This document shows, in pieces, positions 30,001-36,000 of a DNA stretch of 64,000 bases (position 1 is its first letter; every line of letters starts with the position of its first letter). Origin of the DNA: Opitutales bacterium. GTDB lineage: Bacteria; Verrucomicrobiota; Verrucomicrobiia; Opitutales; UBA2987. The DNA is taken from positions 160,001 through 224,000 of the forward strand of contig CBDDEL010000012.1 of assembly GCA_965226885.1 (NCBI GenBank), given 5' to 3'. Position numbers: made by a program.

Positions 30001-33000
30001 TATCGACGGTTTCGGGGTTTTCGAGCAAAACCACGTCGGCAAAACGACCGGGAGCCAAAGACCCCACCAGGTGATCGATGCCGGCGTGTCTGGCCGGGTA
30101 GAGGCTGGCCATGGCGTAGGCGGCTTCCACCGGCGCACCGCTTTTGATGGCCACCCGCAGGTTGTGGTCGGTGGTGCCGATTTCGAGGGCTTCGGCAGCG
30201 TTGCGGTCATCCGTTGTAATCGAGAGGTGCGACCAGTCTTTTATGCCCTTTTTCTTGAAGTAAGGGATGATCTGCGGCAGGGCGTGGTAGCGCAATTGCA
30301 GGAAAATTCCCCGGTTGAGCTTGTTCCAGGCTTCCTCCGCGAAACCCACTTCGTGGTCGCTCTCCAGACCGGCGGCGGCGAAGGCGTTAATGTCGCCCAG
30401 CTCTATCAAACCGGCCCCGTGCCCCTCGATGACTCCGCCGGCATCCCGGGCCGCCTGAATGACCTCCCAAATCCGGCCGGAACCGTCTAGTTCGGTGTTC
30501 CAGACCCGGGGCCAGTCCATGACTTCCCCCAATCCGATGACCCAGGGGTGGCGGGCCATATTTTCTCTGACTTCGGTGTAGCCATAGTAGCCCCCGCCGG
30601 TTTCGTAGGGCGTTGGAGGAGTGGCCGAGCCCAGTTCGGGAAAAATTTTCAAGGGGCTGCCGTGTTCCCTCGGCATCAGCCAGAACTCGACATTGTGCTC
30701 GCCGCTGACATTGGAAAATTCGTGGGAGCCTTCCACCGTCCAGGTGTTGCCGAACGGTATTACTAACGCGGCCTCAAATTCCGGTGTCAGGTGGGAGCTT
30801 TCGATATGCTTGTGCGATTCTCCGAACCCGGGAGCGGCGTAGAGGCCCTCGGTATCGACCATTTTAATAACTTCGCCAGTCCATTGGCCGGAAGGCCCTG
30901 TCCAGGCGATGCGTTTACCCTTGATCACGATATCCCAATTCTTTTGCCAGGTGAGCGTATGCACGTCTAGCATAGTGACGTGGGCCAGAATAAGGTCGGC
31001 TTTGTCCTGGCCCATGGCCACACGCATGAGATTTTGCCGAATCCGGGTTTCCTCATCAAAGGTAAAGTCTCCCCCATCGGCCCAAAGAAAGGCGGTCCCG
31101 GCCCCAATAATGAAAAGAGAAAGGATAGTGCATTTTTTCATTTTGTTCAGATAAGTGATAAACGTTGCAGAGTCCAGAATAAGGCCACCAAGCTGATAAT
31201 GGCGGAGCCGGGGATGAGAATGGCCTTCTTGAAATGCAGCCAATTGCGAAACCACCCCACGGCGCAGAAAGCCGCACAGAGCACGGCGATTTGCCCCAAC
31301 TCGACCCCGATGTTGAAAAACAAAAGAGAGGGAACCAATTCACGGCCGGAAATTTCCAGTTCCAGAAGCACATTGGCAAACCCCATGCCATGCAACAGCC
31401 CAAACAGGAAAACTACCGCCAGCCTGGTTTTACTCAAATTAGCGCGCAAAATGTTCTCCAATCCGACATAGACAATGGAAAGGGCTATGAGCGGCTCGAT
31501 CAGACTTGACGGAAGGGTAAAAATATCCAGCACGGCCACGGCCAGGGTGATGGAGTGGGCCAAGGTAAAACAGGTTACCTGGGCCAGCAGGGGTTTCCAC
31601 CGGATGGCCAGCAGAAAAAGCCCGACGACAAAGAGGATGTGGTCGAGCCCGCCCGGGATTATGTGGGTAAAGCCCAATTCAAGATATTGCCCGGCGAGAA
31701 AAACCCAGCCCATGACGGCCTCCTGCGGCTCCGGTGGCTTTGAGCCGGATGCTTCGGTTGCTTGCCCGGCCTCGGTCTCGGCCTCAGTCAGCCGGACCGG
31801 TTGCAGGGTAAACGGCTCGATTTTCTGACCGCCTTGCAGCCAGCGGGTGATGCGTCGATTTTCACCGATCGTTTTAATGGTCAGAACAATGGGCATTTCA
31901 ACCGGTATCTCAGGATCGGTGTGAAAAGAGAACGCTGCCTCATTTTGGGGCAGTTTTTCCACTAGTTGAATTTGCGTCATGGGCGCCGCCATGGGGCTGA
32001 AAAATCGTTCACTTTTCAGCTTTGGGAGGGATGCCGATACGAATTGCGGGGCCAATCTCGCCGCGCCGTAATTGAAGTGCATTCCTGCTAAAATCCGGTT
32101 CAGGATCGGATCGAGCCGCTCTTTTTGGGCCTCCGGGGGAAGGGTGGTCAATTCGTAATAAGGTCGGGGTCCGTTGAGGATGCGCGTAAGGTCGGCTTTC
32201 ACCAGGATGCGGATATCACCGGCATTCTGGTCGATTTCCACCACAATAATAGTCTTATTGAGCAAATGACCGCTGGCGGCTGGTGTGAAGACGGTCAAAA
32301 GCCCCAAACATAAGGCGGCGTAGAAAAGGGAAAAACCTCCGGCCTCATTGCGCGGACGGAATTTCATCCCTGTACTTTTCCCAGTTTTCCACCAATTCGT
32401 TGACGACACGGCTGCCAACCAGGTAAACATTCTCCAGGGCGGGCAAATAGGCGGAGTAACCCGCGCCATCCTTTTTCTCACCAGCCAGGCTTTGGGCCGC
32501 CGTCAATCCTTCATGGGGCATGGAGTAGTTCGATGCTGAGCGCAGGACAAGGTATCGGCGCGGATCCACTTTTTTTGCCCCGGCCAGAAAATTGAGCGAT
32601 TGATGCGTGGCGGTGTCCTCCATGGCGGCAGTAACGAAATTTCCTTTGCCCTCCGTCCAATAGGAGACCCAATCATTAGCCCATTGGGTGAGCAATTTGC
32701 CGTGCCAGAAAGTGGATGCCGCCAAGTGGTCGCCCTTCAGGACAAAGGGCGGTCGCTGCGCAATGGGGTAATTCTTATATTTGGCACGATGTTTTTTCAA
32801 TTCTTCGAGGTCTTCCAGCGGAACATCCTTGGTCAATTGATAGGCCCACTCGACCAGACCGGCGTTTAGGTGATAGACGGCTCCCTCGTTGTCCTCCTGC
32901 CGGGGGAGTTCATAGGGTTTGGATTTACGCAATGGGATGTAGCCGGTCGGCCAGTCCGCCGGAGCTTCGCGAATGTCGATTTGATGGGCGATATCGCCAT

Positions 33001-36000
33001 CCACCAGCCATTCGGCCCAAGCCGCCGAAGCAAGAGACATATCCGCGGGATCGACTCCGGAAATTCCCGCCACAATCCAGTAAGCCCTGCTCAGGTCGAA
33101 CCGGTCATCCATTCCCAGGGCCATAACCGAGGCCGCAGCCCTGGCTGTACCGATCCCCGTCACCAATCCCAGAACACCTTTTTCGTTGTAGCGCAAATCC
33201 CGGTAGCCCTGCGGCATCGGGAAAACTTTGTCGAGAGGGAAGCGTTCCACCCAAGTTTGAGATTCGCCGGGTCGGTCGCCGCTATCTTCCCCCGCCTCGA
33301 ACATGGTGACGACAACCACTTTGATCGGAAGCGGTTCCGCTGCCGATGGCAATACAGCCATAAAAAGCGGTAAAATGGCCGTTGTTGATAAAATGCTTAT
33401 CATTTTCATGGGAGTAGCTTAAATGAGCTTAGTCATTTCGCGGAGCCCGGTGGAGTATCTTTGTATTTTTTCCAGTCCTTGACGAGGGCGTGGACGACCG
33501 GGCTGGCCACCCTATAACAGGATTCCAGCGCCGTCAAACCTTGCGCCGGGTAGGGGGCGGTCAGGCTCCAGTCGGGGGTTTTTCCAGGAGGCTGATGCGA
33601 GTAGTTGCTAGCCGTTCTGAGCACAAGCACCCTGTTTAAATCCACCTTACCGTTTTCGGCAAGGCGGTGTAGAGCGCGCAGGGTGCCGTTGTCCTCGACA
33701 TTGGTCATCATGAAATTTCCCTTCCCTTCGGTGTATAATTTCACCCAGTCGTTGGCCCATTGATTGAGGACTGTTCCATGCCAGTAGGCGTTGGAACCAA
33801 GGCTCTCTCCCATGACCACTTTTGGCGGGGCCGACGCATTGGGAAAGCCCTTGTAACGTTTCCGAAACTCCGCCACCTCGGTGTGGTCCGTCAACTCCAC
33901 ATACTTGGTTAAATGGTAGGCCCACTCGACCAGAGATTGATTGAGCCTGAACGACATGTTGGGGTAAGTCCAACCACCGGACCTGTCATTCGGTTTTTTC
34001 CCATCGGAGGGAAAAATGCCATAAGGCCAATCCTTTGGCGCTTCCCGCGAATCGATGGAGTGGGTCAAGTCCCCGTCCACCACCCAGCGAGACCAGGCGG
34101 CGCTGCCGATGGATACATCCTGGGGGTCCCCTCCGGCAATGCCGGAAACGATGAAGTAGGTTCTGCTCAGGTCGAACCGCTCGTCCAGACCGAGGGCGGT
34201 TATGACCATGGCGGCATTAGTCACTCCCGGCCCCGTGCAAATGCCCATGACTCCCCGGTCGTTCATGCGCAGATCGTGCGGACCCATGGGAAAGGGATAT
34301 ATCTTGTCCAGTTTTTCCCTCTCCACCCAAAACTGATACTCGCCCGGCTTATCGCCCGTATCATCGCCGATCTCATACATGGCGATGACGGCCACCTTTA
34401 CCGGGATGCGCTCCTTCTTTTCGGCTCCACCGAGGGGCGCCAACACGAACAGAAGGAGAACCAGAGTTATTATTTGTTTTATCCTGTGCATCATTTTTTC
34501 ATTTTAATTCTCTTCTGGGAGATGATTTTCGTAGCGGTCCCAGTTGTCCGCCAGTTCATGGAGCACTATGCTGCCGACTTTATAAGCCGCCTGTATGGCG
34601 GGCAGACCTTTTAAAACATAGGGTGCGCTGAAATGCCATTCGGCCCCCTTGCCTCGGGGCGGGGTGGAGTAATTGCTGGCCGTGCGCAGCACCATGATCC
34701 GGTCGAAATCGACTTTGCCCGATTTTGAGAGGCGTTTCAACGAGGTTAGACTGCCGTTGTCCTCCATCGCTGTCATGACGAAGTTTCCCTTTCCCTCGGT
34801 GTATAATTTCACCCAATCATTGGCCCAATTATTGAGCAGGTGCCCGTGCCAATAAGTGCTCGATCCCATGGCGTCGCCTTTCATGACGAAGGGTGGGCGC
34901 ATGGCGTTGGGGTAGTTTTTATATTGAATTCGAAACGCCTTCATTTCCGGGCCGTCTTCGATGGGATGATCCTTGGTCAATTGGAAAGCCCATTCCTGTA
35001 GGTGGGGATTTAGGTGGTAAACCACGACGGAATCGGAGGAGTGGGGCTTCCTTTCATTCGGCTTTGTGCCGCTCAATGGAAGTATCCCGTAGGGCCAATC
35101 CTCGGGAATTTCCCGCGAATCCATTTCATGGACGAGATCGCCGTCGAGGACGTATTCGGCCCAGGCCGCCGTTCCCAGGGAAGCATCTTCCGGATCGGCC
35201 CCGGCAATGCCCGCTATCAGCCAGTAGGATTTGGAGAAATCGAAACGCGGGTCCAGGCCCAGGGCCATAATGGTGGCCGTGGCATTGGTTACTCCGACAC
35301 CCGTTTCGAGAGCCAAAACGCCATTGTCGTTCATCCGCAAGTCACTTACTCCCAAGGGAAAGGGGATTACCTTGTCCAGTTTTTCCCCTTTAATCCACAA
35401 CTCCAGTTCCCCCGGGTTGCCATCATCCTGGGTTCCCCGCTCGAACATGGCCACTACCACGACCTTGACGGGTATCGGTTTGGCATCCGCCCATCCCGCA
35501 GGCAGAGCGAGAAAAGGAATCAACAAATTCAAGAACAATGGGTAAAACTTGGAATTATTCATAAGGACAAATTGCGAGTTTCTATTTCCAACGATTGGCT
35601 TTTACCGGAGAGTAAATGAAAAATCAAATCCTATACTTCTGCTTCGCTAAATTGTCACTGGCGCTATTTGGCGCTGGTAAATTCATTTTCCATGGATAGA
35701 CCTGAATTGCATTATGAAAATCAGCTTTGAGTCCATAATCGCTTTGTTTTTCATGCCGCTGTGTCTTTTCGCGGAACCGCATTCTTCGATCCAACTGCCG
35801 GAAGGAGTGCCGGCCTCGCAGATCTGTGTTTTGGGGGGCACCAATGTTGCCAAGGCGCTCACCAGGACCGAATATATCCGCGGCTCTTTTACCATAGAGA
35901 CTCCGTTCGGAAAATCACCGAAAATTTATCATGGCGAGGTGAAGGGGGTTCCCTTTTATCATATTCCGCTGCATGGGGGCATCGAGTGGACCGGAAAAAC

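Follow-up and report, generated by a model that had tools for sequence, protein, structure and literature searches.

Putative purine nucleoside hydrolases behind the name 'purine nucleoside permease' in an Opitutales bacterium

The NUP gene run and its surroundings

In the window, that is, the whole 64,000-nucleotide stretch of an Opitutales genome analysed here, three genes of the NUP family (Pfam PF06516) form a tandem run on the minus strand, separated by intergenic gaps of 23 and 9 nt. Copy C (34504..35562, 352 aa, E 9.5e-109, profile positions 2-312 of 313) leads the run, followed by copy B (33433..34494, 353 aa, E 8.7e-108), which was used for modelling, and copy A (32345..33409, 354 aa, E 1.5e-112), and the profile is covered end to end by all three open reading frames. 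Copies C and A are 51% and 48% identical to copy B, respectively, and the tree places copy A apart from the other two. There are five PF06516 matches above the Pfam cut-off in the genome (5.48 Mb, 17 contigs), the remaining two being full-length NUP matches of 348 and 334 aa on contigs C16 and C15. The observation of an earlier note, three tandem genes and two elsewhere, is confirmed as a whole, and its count of homologues, 3,874 proteins among 6,730 candidates, was obtained again. However, the name 'purine nucleoside permease' is not used everywhere, as had been stated, and several NCBI and UniRef records read 'purine-nucleoside phosphorylase'.

The run is surrounded by genes of nucleoside metabolism. 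Its divergent neighbour on the plus strand is an adenosine deaminase with a signal-like N-terminus (36713..38206, PF00962 E 5.9e-36), which weakly matches the adenosine deaminase-related growth factor subfamily. Also on the plus strand, an MTAP/PNP-like phosphorylase with a signal-like N-terminus (35714..36651) is split over two frames, with PF01048 on the second ORF; tblastn with its paralogue matches both frames, which overlap at about 35992-36013. The following genes are all on the minus strand. Directly downstream of copy A lies a HupE/UreJ_2 membrane protein gene with a long N-terminal part (31147..32481, PF13795 E 3.2e-47 at residues 266-413), whose real start is probably later than 32481, and which also neighbours NUP in L030 and L031, the two loci most closely related to this one. 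An adenine deaminase (29252..31255, PF13382 and PF01979; TIGR01178 E 1.1e-85, under its cut-off) would have a signal-like N-terminus from an internal Met, and a second MTAP/PNP-like phosphorylase with a signal-like N-terminus (27439..28383, PF01048 E 6.5e-19) gives weak MTAP and PNP matches under their cut-offs. Farther away are two true CNT nucleoside transporters in tandem (44963..47575; Nucleos_tra2_C, Nucleos_tra2_N and Gate, E 2e-64 and 3e-68), a uridine phosphorylase (47590-48288, NF008383 E 5.4e-101, above cut-off), a 5'-nucleotidase whose N-terminus includes a hydrophobic stretch (48341-50008, 5_nucleotid_C and Metallophos) and an outer-membrane protein that resembles TonB-dependent receptors and bears a signal peptide (50060..53242; OMP_b-brl_4, Plug and CarboxypepD_reg).

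For comparison, the neighbours of NUP, out to the second gene either way, were tallied by hand in 63 related loci, which are kin and not independent. A nucleoside or nucleobase gene is near NUP in 20 of them, and none occurs within two genes in the other 43. The neighbours include adenosine deaminase (10 loci), a xanthine/uracil-type nucleobase permease (8) and an IU-type nucleoside hydrolase (5), and most of the neighbouring deaminases and hydrolases have signal-like N-termini. An exported IU-type hydrolase beside NUP would duplicate part of the work of a NUP hydrolase, which counts against reading NUP as a hydrolase.

Export, solubility and fold

Signal peptides were assigned from hydrophobicity and by eye, and their cleavage sites likewise by eye. 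Signal-like N-termini are found on the minus strand at 35488..35562 in copy C (about residues 1-25, ending GWA, in a 31-residue extension before strand 1), at 34423..34494 in copy B (about residues 1-24, ending GGA) and at 33338..33409 in copy A (about residues 1-24, ending SAA, in a 28-residue extension). The extensions of the three copies measure 28-31 residues, and their 10-residue hydrophobic windows lie between 2.4 and 3.5 (2.40, 3.47 and 2.68 for C, B and A, respectively). The two signal peptides noted earlier in the run therefore stand, and the third tandem copy has one too; copies without a signal peptide number two, not three of five, namely the distant ones on C16 and C15. Among 57 family representatives, the extension is present in 42, absent in 14 and unclear in one. 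Because a signal peptide is missing from two local copies and from 14/57 representatives, the NUP family is not extracytoplasmic only.

In the mature part, the top 19-residue Kyte-Doolittle window reaches only 1.05-1.46 in the five local copies, so that all five are predicted to be without a membrane helix, as had been claimed; the top window across all 57 representatives is 1.96. The sequences thus support soluble proteins rather than permeases, with the tandem copies exported.

An AlphaFold2 model of copy B built from 57 sequences has a pLDDT of 95.3 and a pTM of 0.90, and its signal region forms a single helix (residues 2-21) that stands apart from the domain. The segment 144-176, described before as disordered, is ordered in this deeper model (block pLDDT 95, 96, 95 and 83 over residues 141-180). 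In Foldseek against the PDB, all hits listed at ranks 1-45 are 5'-methylthioadenosine/S-adenosylhomocysteine nucleosidases (MTAN) or futalosine hydrolase (E 2.4e-12 to 1.7e-10), including the periplasmic Aeromonas MTAN 5B7Q; uridine phosphorylase chains begin at rank 47, and 5B7P stands at rank 50. In VIA-align the model scores Z 24.6 (rmsd 2.3 A, 230/237 residues) with V. cholerae MTAN, Z 24.0 with the periplasmic Aeromonas MTAN and Z 20.2 with uridine phosphorylase. The MTAN fold proposed earlier is therefore borne out, and profile-profile comparison by hhalign of the 57-sequence NUP alignment with 11 MTANs agrees with it (probability 97.5%, E 2.2e-11, 231 columns). Against a nucleosidase speak the NCBIfam models for MTAN, PNP and others, which miss copy B at E 1e-5, and the NUP profile, which finds PDB MTAN sequences with E about 1 at best. 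As noted before, the PDB offers no relative by sequence, the hits there being ankyrin noise with E no better than 0.02. The relationship with the MTAN fold is not new, given that NUP is already placed by Pfam in the purine/uridine phosphorylase clan (PMC9815663). No paper making the nucleosidase reinterpretation of NUP was found in the literature searched.

As modelled, the tandem products are probably homodimeric. The homodimer score is 0.93 in three runs, against 0.00 for the best control, with at least 96% of the contacts in common and a partner pLDDT of at least 93. The mark applied is reached by 20/30 proteins solved as same-chain pairs and by 1/23 solved as single chains; since MTAN dimers are solved, the pass may merely mirror the likeness to MTAN. 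In the dimer, contacts run from the conserved loop 142-153 in one chain to the base-binding stretch 234-243 in the other.

The active site and what it permits

Residue equivalences come from the profile alignment in copy B numbering, and were counted over 57 bacterial representatives and 30 eukaryotic relatives, namely 29 fungi, including three Saccharomycotina yeasts that are kin of the Candida founder, and one tardigrade record. The catalytic residues, previously unmapped, can now be aligned with those of MTAN: Glu12, Glu174, Arg193, Ser196 and Phe151 are kept, and Asp197 is Asn locally. Glu52 (codon 34339..34341, minus strand), aligned by hhalign at 97.5% with the water-activating base Glu12, is Glu in 56/57 representatives and 30/30 eukaryotic relatives; Glu267 (33694..33696, minus strand), equivalent to the ribose hydroxyl ligand Glu174, is Glu in 55/57 and 30/30, respectively. 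The codons of Arg293-Thr-Ala-Ser296-Asn297 (33604..33618, minus strand) correspond to Arg193...Ser196-Asp197, with Arg293 in 57/57 and 30/30 and Ser296 in 51/57. All of these codon assignments were checked. Tyr/Phe237 (MTAN Phe151) and Met266 (MTAN Met173) occur in 53 and 39 of the representatives. At position 297, where MTAN has its leaving-group acid Asp197, the representatives have Asn (40), Asp (12), Glu (2) or another residue (3); all five local copies have Asn, and 27/30 eukaryotic relatives have Asp. In the tree this position flips between Asn and Asp/Glu several times, and the other site residues stay. Wherever an adenosine deaminase neighbours NUP (10 related loci), the NUP genes carry Asn here (Ser in one gene).

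Proteins of the MTAN/PNP fold can catalyse with Asn as the leaving-group residue: trimeric PNPs, which use Asn243/Asn256, are specific for 6-oxopurines, and Asn to Asp confers adenosine activity (PMC5074518). In addition, MTAN Glu12, Asn73 and Ser76 align to Arg24, Arg87 and Ser90 of E. coli PNP (probability 98.2%), among which Arg24 and Ser90 are phosphate ligands (PMC3434127). NUP has Glu (56/57), Val/Ile/Leu (52/57) and Ile/Val (51/57) at these three positions, and a hydrolase is favoured over a phosphorylase because the phosphate ligands are missing.

Being soluble, exported and built like a nucleoside-cleaving enzyme, the tandem NUPs therefore most likely split purine nucleosides, and do so extracytoplasmically, rather than carry them over the membrane. 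We consider it likely that they are periplasmic homodimeric purine nucleoside hydrolases, with the Asn type favouring inosine or guanosine. The data show the export signal, the lack of membrane helices, the fold, the conserved residues and the gene context; we infer catalysis, its substrate, and hydrolysis rather than phosphorolysis, and no measured enzyme activity for any NUP protein was found in the literature searched. As for the earlier proposal of extracytoplasmic hydrolases or phosphorylases, it is partly supported: the fold, most of the site and the export of the tandem copies favour it, the signal-less copies and the Asn in place of Asp197 limit it, and the hydrolase is the favoured half.

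The replacement of Asp197 by Asn in 5/5 local copies and 40/57 representatives, together with Ser76 to Ile/Val, could instead mark a catalytically silent periplasmic pseudoenzyme of MTAN fold, which would bind purine nucleosides and hand them to a transporter or protect them, so that the 'permease' phenotype would be assisted uptake of the intact nucleoside. According to PDB titles, two MTAN mutants with this change, Asp197Asn from E. coli and D198N from H. pylori, were crystallised with intact, uncleaved substrate. Both mutants are reported to be inactive. The true CNT transporters are encoded 9 kb off in the same island. However, we regard this as unlikely. The water Glu, the ribose Glu and Arg-Ser are near-invariant in both Asn-type and Asp-type members, which mere binding would not require; 14/57 members are cytoplasmic; Asp prevails in the eukaryotic members; and trimeric PNPs natively use Asn for catalysis (PMC5074518). 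Nor was any binding-protein-dependent ABC or TRAP component seen among the 234 neighbouring proteins scanned, where FtsX/MacB, in 2 loci, are the sole ABC-type parts.

It is similarly improbable that NUP is an N-glycosidase of this fold whose substrates are not ordinary purine nucleosides but, for instance, nucleotides (cf. AMP nucleosidase), MTA/5'-deoxyadenosine, cytokinin ribosides or NAD/ADP-ribose-like compounds. The nearest structures do act on 5'-substituted adenosines, conserved NUP-specific charged residues of the partner loop 142-153 sit at the place of the MTAN 5'-substituent pocket, and the PpnN nucleotide nucleosidase adjoins NUP in 3/63 loci and macro-domain proteins in 2/63. PNP-like domains also serve as effector domains in defence systems, which would count in the same direction. 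But the island provides nucleosides, by its 5'-nucleotidase and the adenosine deaminase adjoining NUP, the genome carries a separate MTAN above the TIGR01704 cut-off, and adenine limitation induces the Candida gene 17-fold, a gene that also allows growth on adenosine (PMC5541157 and PMC9431476).

A purine nucleoside phosphorylase yielding base and ribose-1-phosphate, as some database records would have it, seems quite doubtful, although the fold is common to PNP, MTAP and uridine phosphorylase, the leaving-group Asn is typical of phosphorylases (PMC5074518), and the NUP-specific conserved Arg150 (46/57) and Arg288 (52/57) could make a new anion site. All three canonical phosphate ligands are replaced, a carboxylate at the phosphate site is the solution of the hydrolase MTAN, extracytoplasmic ribose-1-phosphate would be a poor product to import, and no experiment could be traced behind the database names. 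Finally, a real membrane permease, as annotated, as the founder was named and as the yeast complementation was read by its authors, is very nearly dismissed, since its identity is contradicted already by a mature part without a hydrophobic segment, as well as by the confident globular alpha/beta model with a complete MTAN fold, the signal-less cytoplasmic paralogues and the true CNT transporters encoded nearby.

A putative scavenging route and the Candida founder

The tandem products, Sec-exported and soluble proteins of the nucleoside phosphorylase-I/MTAN fold, would act as purine nucleoside N-ribohydrolases. The conserved Glu52 would activate water, Glu267 and Met/Val266 would hold the ribose hydroxyls, Tyr/Phe237 would stack on the base, and Arg293, Ser296 and Asn297 would hold the purine N7/O6 edge. 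Since the leaving-group Asn matches that of the 6-oxopurine-specific trimeric phosphorylases, inosine, guanosine or xanthosine would be expected over adenosine. The order of steps that we infer is as follows: nucleic-acid breakdown products may enter via the outer-membrane receptor, the 5'-nucleotidase may take off phosphate, the exported adenosine deaminase may make inosine, and NUP may free hypoxanthine, guanine or xanthine and ribose for uptake.

Elsewhere, proximity labelling of the thylakoid lumen in a cyanobacterium tagged a NUP homologue (PMC7880944), and a secretory signal is found in 27/30 eukaryotic relatives. Thymidine is not easily squared with a purine nucleosidase. The earlier suggestion that the permease phenotype of the Candida founder is indirect fits what PMC9431476 describes: with Candida NUP, an adenine-requiring yeast grows on adenosine without becoming sensitive to the 7-deaza-adenosine drugs toyocamycin and tubercidin, whereas CNT confers that sensitivity.

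Tandem NUP genes and the spread of the family

The minus strand carries a head-to-tail run of three genes, namely copy C (34504-35562, 352 aa), copy B (33433-34494, 353 aa) and copy A (32345-33409, 354 aa), and they likely form one transcription unit, since the gaps between them are only 9 and 23 nt. Against the Pfam family PF06516 (NUP, 'purine nucleoside permease'), for which the gathering score is 27 bits, they score 363.8, 360.6 and 376.3 bits, respectively (E 1e-108 to 1e-112, profile positions 2 to 311 or 312 of 313). With two distant copies on other contigs (copies 4 and 5; 348 and 334 aa, 316.6 and 280 bits), the genome (5.48 Mb, 17 contigs, 96% complete) carries five NUP genes, which are full-length family members. 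Copy B is 48% identical to copy A, 51% to copy C, and 42% and 37% to the distant copies. In a quick tree, copies B and C are sisters and copy A is placed elsewhere, which suggests that the array is old.

The best homologues are found in assemblies of Opitutales (Verrucomicrobiota), Steroidobacteraceae and Acidobacteriota. Within the phylum the distribution is patchy: 4 of the 121 genomes sampled carry the family, each with 2-5 copies, and these four belong to the same order. At 90% identity the whole family comprises 3,874 clusters (E 1e-10 or better), and at the 50% level 1,623 (E 0.001 or better); it is mostly labeled as a transporter. Some homologues (P0121, P0125 and P0308-P0323, for example from Duganella) are proteins of 650-690 residues with a NUP domain; P0121 and P0125 align to copy B in two stretches, and such long proteins look like a fused tandem duplication that would mimic the dimer predicted below. 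In the closest related assembly, in which copy B is 88% identical, the gene at 6884-7810 of locus L030 was considered as an orthologue of the MTAP-like gene and turned out to be a truncated NUP copy. This gene, orthologous to copy C, stops prematurely past the ASNYS motif, carries His where Arg293 is otherwise invariant, and is possibly a decaying copy.

Fold, active site and export

Residue numbers below are those of copy B, whose AlphaFold2 model, based on an alignment of 57 family representatives, has a pLDDT of 95.3 and a pTM of 0.90. The insertion at residues ~141-180, of which the earlier note gave 144-176 as disordered, is ordered in this model. The rows listed at ranks 1-45 of a Foldseek search of the PDB are 5'-methylthioadenosine/S-adenosylhomocysteine nucleosidases (MTANs) and futalosine hydrolase (E 2.4e-12 to 1.7e-10), followed by uridine phosphorylase. 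In VIA-align, the model superposes on the Vibrio cholerae MTAN with a Z of 24.6 (rmsd 2.3 A, 230 of 237 residues), on the periplasmic Aeromonas MTAN with a Z of 24.0 (rmsd 3.0 A, 235 residues aligned) and on uridine phosphorylase with a Z of 20.2. The MTAN fold proposed earlier is therefore borne out, and since 230 of the 237 MTAN residues superpose, NUP can be described as a complete MTAN fold with ~90 residues of insertions.

In sequence comparisons, copy B searched against the PDB gave ankyrin noise only, the NUP profile reached MTAN at E ~1 only, which is unusable alone, and hhalign of the NUP alignment with the single E. coli MTAN sequence was partial (probability 15%). Consequently, an alignment of 11 MTANs (E. 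coli plus ten from the same phylum) was needed, with which hhalign gave a probability of 97.5% and an E of 2.2e-11 over 231 columns. Both fold and profile alignment place NUP in the nucleoside phosphorylase-I / purine-uridine phosphorylase superfamily. In the part of the source available, Pfam likewise assigns NUP to the purine/uridine phosphorylase clan (PMC9815663), and the fold link is thus already known at the database level. Judged by sequence, NUP is outside MTAN proper: an NCBIfam scan of copy B found no family at E 1e-5, the MTAN model TIGR01704 (EC 3.2.2.9) included, and MTAN Asp197 is absent. A separate MTAN gene, on contig C13, passes the TIGR01704 cut-off.

The catalytic residues, which the earlier note had left unmapped, could be placed on MTAN by the profile alignment, and the equivalents of Glu12, Phe151, Met173, Glu174, Arg193 and Ser196 are conserved. 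Glu52 corresponds to MTAN Glu12, the water-activating base, and is Glu in 56 of the 57 representatives. The ribose site is retained in Val266 (MTAN Met173; Met in 39/57) and Glu267 (Glu174; Glu in 55/57), together with the pair Arg293 (Arg193; 57/57) and Ser296 (Ser196; 51/57). Tyr237 stands at Phe151 (Tyr in 28, Phe in 25 of 57), and Ile119 at Ser76 (Ile in 45, Val in 6 of 57, Ser never). Asn297 stands in place of Asp197, the MTAN acid that donates a proton to N7 of the departing adenine, and this position is Asn in 40, Asp in 12, Glu in 2 and another residue in 3 of the 57. All five local copies carry Asn here, and for copy B the codons of Glu52, Glu267 and residues 293-297 were confirmed in the DNA. 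The family also has invariant residues of its own, namely Asp108, Trp238-His239-Gly240, Asp148, Arg150 and Arg288.

The 30 eukaryotic relatives consist of 29 fungi, among them three Saccharomycotina yeasts related to the Candida albicans founder of the family, and one tardigrade record. Glu52, Glu267 and Arg293 are present in 30/30, Ser296 in 29/30, Asp297 in 27/30 and a secretory signal in 27/30. The complete MTAN set is thus retained in the eukaryotic branch, and the local proteins are an Asn variant. The tardigrade record (P0385, Paramacrobiotus metropolitanus) has a secretory signal and Asp at 297 and falls in the fungal clade of the tree, by either horizontal transfer or contamination.

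Could the Asn variant be a silent nucleoside-binding protein? According to PDB titles, an Asp-to-Asn mutant of MTAN traps intact substrate, and the same change in NUP therefore argues against catalysis. However, in the excerpt available of a study on trimeric purine nucleoside phosphorylases (PNPs), Asn is the native residue (human Asn243, K. lactis Asn256) of 6-oxopurine-specific enzymes, and its change to Asp gains adenosine activity (PMC5074518). Across the NUP tree, position 297 has changed several times between Asn and Asp/Glu, while the other active-site residues stayed constant, and from sequence the alternation looks like a specificity switch, not decay. We consider a silent binding protein unlikely. 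An N-glycosidase for other substrates is likewise improbable in our judgment.

A phosphorylase is the name already given to NUP on some NCBI and UniRef records ('purine-nucleoside phosphorylase'), behind which no experiment could be traced. Direct hhalign of NUP with the single E. coli DeoD sequence failed (probability 0.1%), so that the phosphate ligands of the hexameric, DeoD-type PNP were mapped through MTAN. MTAN aligns to E. coli PNP with a probability of 98.2%, with Glu12, Asn73 and Ser76 standing where PNP has Arg24, Arg87 and Ser90, of which Arg24 and Ser90 bind phosphate according to a passage in PMC3434127. By this transitive mapping, NUP has Glu52, Val/Ile/Leu116 and Ile/Val119 there. 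Since the canonical phosphate site is missing, a hydrolase is likelier than a phosphorylase, and we regard the latter as quite unlikely.

The MTAN site is completed by a loop of the partner chain. A homodimer model of mature copy B scored 0.93 in three runs, compared with 0.00 for the best of three controls; among proteins of solved structure, 20 of 30 that are pairs of one chain attain this score, and 1 of 23 that are single chains does. At least 96% of the contacts are common to the runs, with a partner pLDDT of at least 93. In the model, the conserved, NUP-specific loop 142-153 (Asp142, Asp148, Arg150, Glu151) contacts the base-binding stretch 234-243 of the partner, and the NUP loop that aligns to the MTAN partner-subunit loop, where MTAN forms its hydrophobic pocket for the 5'-alkylthio group, is charged (Asp148, Arg150, Glu151). 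As MTAN dimers are solved, this result may reflect likeness to MTAN only.

Copies A, B and C begin with an extension of 28-31 residues, with a hydrophobic core of 2.4-3.5 and ends of SAA, GGA and GWA, respectively, which in the model is a lone helix outside the domain. By a heuristic reading (charged start, hydrophobic core, small-residue cleavage site), all three are Sec-exported to the periplasm; the earlier note was right that export signals are present, although it counted two. In copies 4 and 5, the first beta strand comes right at the start, without a signal. Among the 57 representatives, the extension is present in 42 (some with a lipoprotein-like Cys), absent in 14 and unclear in 1, which suggests that the family has exported and cytoplasmic branches. 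The highest 19-residue hydropathy window in the mature parts of the five local copies is 1.05-1.46, and hydropathy finds no membrane-spanning helix in any of them. With no such helix and a globular alpha/beta domain in the model of copy B, a true permease, as the family name has it, is hardly credible. The core observation of the earlier note, five NUP copies with an MTAN fold and no membrane helix, is thereby confirmed and extended.

Taken together, the three tandem NUP copies are probably periplasmic, dimeric purine nucleoside hydrolases. The Asn-type enzymes would probably act on the inosine, guanosine or xanthosine supplied by the neighboring exported deaminase.

The nucleoside-use island and related loci

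The window holds a nucleoside-use island around the three NUP genes. It contains an adenine deaminase (29252-31255, minus strand) and an adenosine deaminase (36713-38206, plus strand), both with signal-like N-termini, two MTAP-like phosphorylases with signals (27439-28383, minus; 35714-36651, plus), one of which is frameshifted, a 5'-nucleotidase with a hydrophobic N-terminal stretch, a uridine phosphorylase, two true CNT nucleoside transporters and a TonB-type outer-membrane receptor (50060-53242). Both deaminases and the MTAP-like phosphorylase at 27439-28383 are of kinds usually regarded as cytoplasmic. Judging by the signal-like N-termini of these three, a whole purine-processing pathway appears to be placed outside the cytoplasm here. 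In the MTAP/PNP-like gene at 35714-36651, residues 9-106 of the paralogue at 27439-28383 align to one frame and residues 96-290 to a second one, which takes over at ~35992-36013; either this gene is a pseudogene, or the assembly is in error.

A HupE/UreJ_2-type membrane protein follows the NUP run here (31147-32481, minus strand) and in the two closest loci (L030 10793-11596; L031 10128-11333). Its N-terminal part of ~220 residues belongs to no known family, and its true start is probably later than the annotated one, which overlaps copy A. It could be what actually carries the base set free by NUP, or it could provide the deaminases with metal. DDE_Tnp_1_4 transposase genes flank the island (15301-16671, minus; 40327-41295, plus, the latter spanning only positions 3-271 of the 435 of the profile), and on another contig the fifth NUP copy has, immediately upstream, an ORF that looks transposase-like in sequence (L005 6-1109). 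Downstream of a MotA/ExbB-family gene, at 18804-23284 (minus strand), are three ORFs (353, 354 and 496 aa) with faint Pfam matches or none. An Rfam scan of 26000-54000 returned nothing at E up to 1, hence no purine riboswitch, and promoter-like (5, with 4.3 expected) and terminator-like (5, with 7.9 expected) motifs were at or below chance.

Altogether 80 related loci were collected with copy B alone as query, and they are therefore biased to close, mostly Asn-type relatives. A simple ORF caller recovered the NUP gene in 64 of them, and in 63 the two genes on each side (234 proteins) were scanned and tallied by hand. The neighbors include adenosine deaminase (10/63), xanthine/uracil-family nucleobase permease (8/63), TonB-type or related outer-membrane barrels (8/63), amidohydrolase and RutR-like repressor (6/63), IU-type nucleoside hydrolase (5/63), phosphoribosyltransferase (5/63), PpnN (3/63) and a CNT transporter (1/63). 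In 20 of the 63 loci the neighbors include one or more clear nucleoside or nucleobase genes, and in 43 they include none, although the loci are kin and the counts not independent. Most of the neighboring deaminases and IU-type hydrolases have signal-like N-termini, one of them Tat-like. No parts of binding-protein-dependent ABC or TRAP transporters were seen among the 234 proteins. All 10 loci with a deaminase neighbor have Asn at position 297 of NUP (Ser in one gene); such a neighbor occurs in 0 of 7 Asp-type loci and in 10 of the remaining loci, numbers that are too few and not independent, and give a hint only.

Reinterpretation of the family and comparison with known systems

The permease name of Candida NUP reportedly goes back to complementation in S. 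cerevisiae. In the portion available of a later study, Candida NUP as well as the true transporter CNT enables an adenine auxotroph to use adenosine for growth, while sensitivity to toyocamycin and tubercidin comes from CNT only, which its authors read as a narrower specificity of NUP (PMC9431476). The contrast is equally fitted by extracellular cleavage of adenosine followed by uptake of adenine. The same text says that thymidine is also 'transported' by NUP (PMC9431476), which is not easily fitted by a nucleosidase. In excerpts of other papers, NUP is induced 17-fold under adenine limitation (PMC5541157), NUP homologues are part of a yeast secretome prediction (PMC10657120), and one each is found in proteomics data tabulated for A. 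fumigatus conidia, within a section on rodlet assembly (PMC7389560), and in a cyanobacterial lumen-labeling set (PMC7880944). Our literature search found no paper that names NUP a nucleosidase or gives an assay.

A wider reading, to which we give even chances, is that the whole family, including the Candida founder, consists of MTAN-fold purine nucleoside hydrolases, extracytoplasmic and in part cytoplasmic, that the 'permease' activity would be release of the base followed by its uptake, and that position 297 would be a switch between an adenosine type with Asp (fungi) and an inosine/guanosine type with Asn (here, beside an exported adenosine deaminase). If so, bacteria and fungi would have in common a purine scavenging step in the periplasm or cell wall. 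The 'permease' label is probably a family-wide misannotation. If NUP proteins act as nucleosidases, the metabolic models and transporter inventories of many bacteria and fungi are mistaken here, and purine scavenging gains a cleavage step outside the membrane, which would explain why NUP occurs beside nucleobase permeases and exported deaminases. Nucleoside 'uptake' in Candida would then be reinterpreted, with a bearing on why 7-deaza nucleoside drugs bypass this route. The novelty is tempered by the facts that databases already place NUP in the phosphorylase superfamily and that a periplasmic MTAN has been solved; NUP is a new functional variant on a known fold, not a new kind of system.

Among known systems, MTAN (MtnN/Pfs, E. 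coli and relatives) shares with NUP the whole fold, the equivalents of Glu12, Phe151, Met173, Glu174, Arg193 and Ser196 and, by prediction, a two-fold dimer in which a partner loop reaches the active-site region. However, NUP is ~90 residues longer through insertions, has Asn (locally) for Asp197 and Ile for Ser76 as well as invariant residues of its own, and is usually exported. The calcium-dependent IU-type nucleoside hydrolases (PF01156) catalyze the reaction proposed here (nucleoside to base and ribose), and exported forms adjoin NUP in 5 of the 63 loci, whereas their fold and mechanism are unrelated. The periplasmic MTAN of Aeromonas hydrophila (PDB 5B7P, 5B7Q) has the same fold and is an exported nucleosidase, hence a precedent for such chemistry in the periplasm, but it is an ordinary MTAN by title, lacks the NUP insertions and is 16% identical to copy B. 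The trimeric 6-oxopurine PNPs belong to the same superfamily and have a leaving-group Asn, and their Asn/Asp specificity alternation, in the part available of PMC5074518, parallels that of NUP; they are phosphate-using trimers, whereas NUP is a predicted dimer without the phosphate ligands (as mapped through the hexameric PNP). The NUP of Candida albicans is of the same Pfam family (E ~1e-108 for the local proteins) and was compared through the 30 eukaryotic relatives, a set that does not include the founder's own sequence. These relatives share the fold-defining motifs and the secretory signal with the local NUP proteins at 26-33% identity, and differ from them in having Asp (27/30) instead of Asn at position 297.
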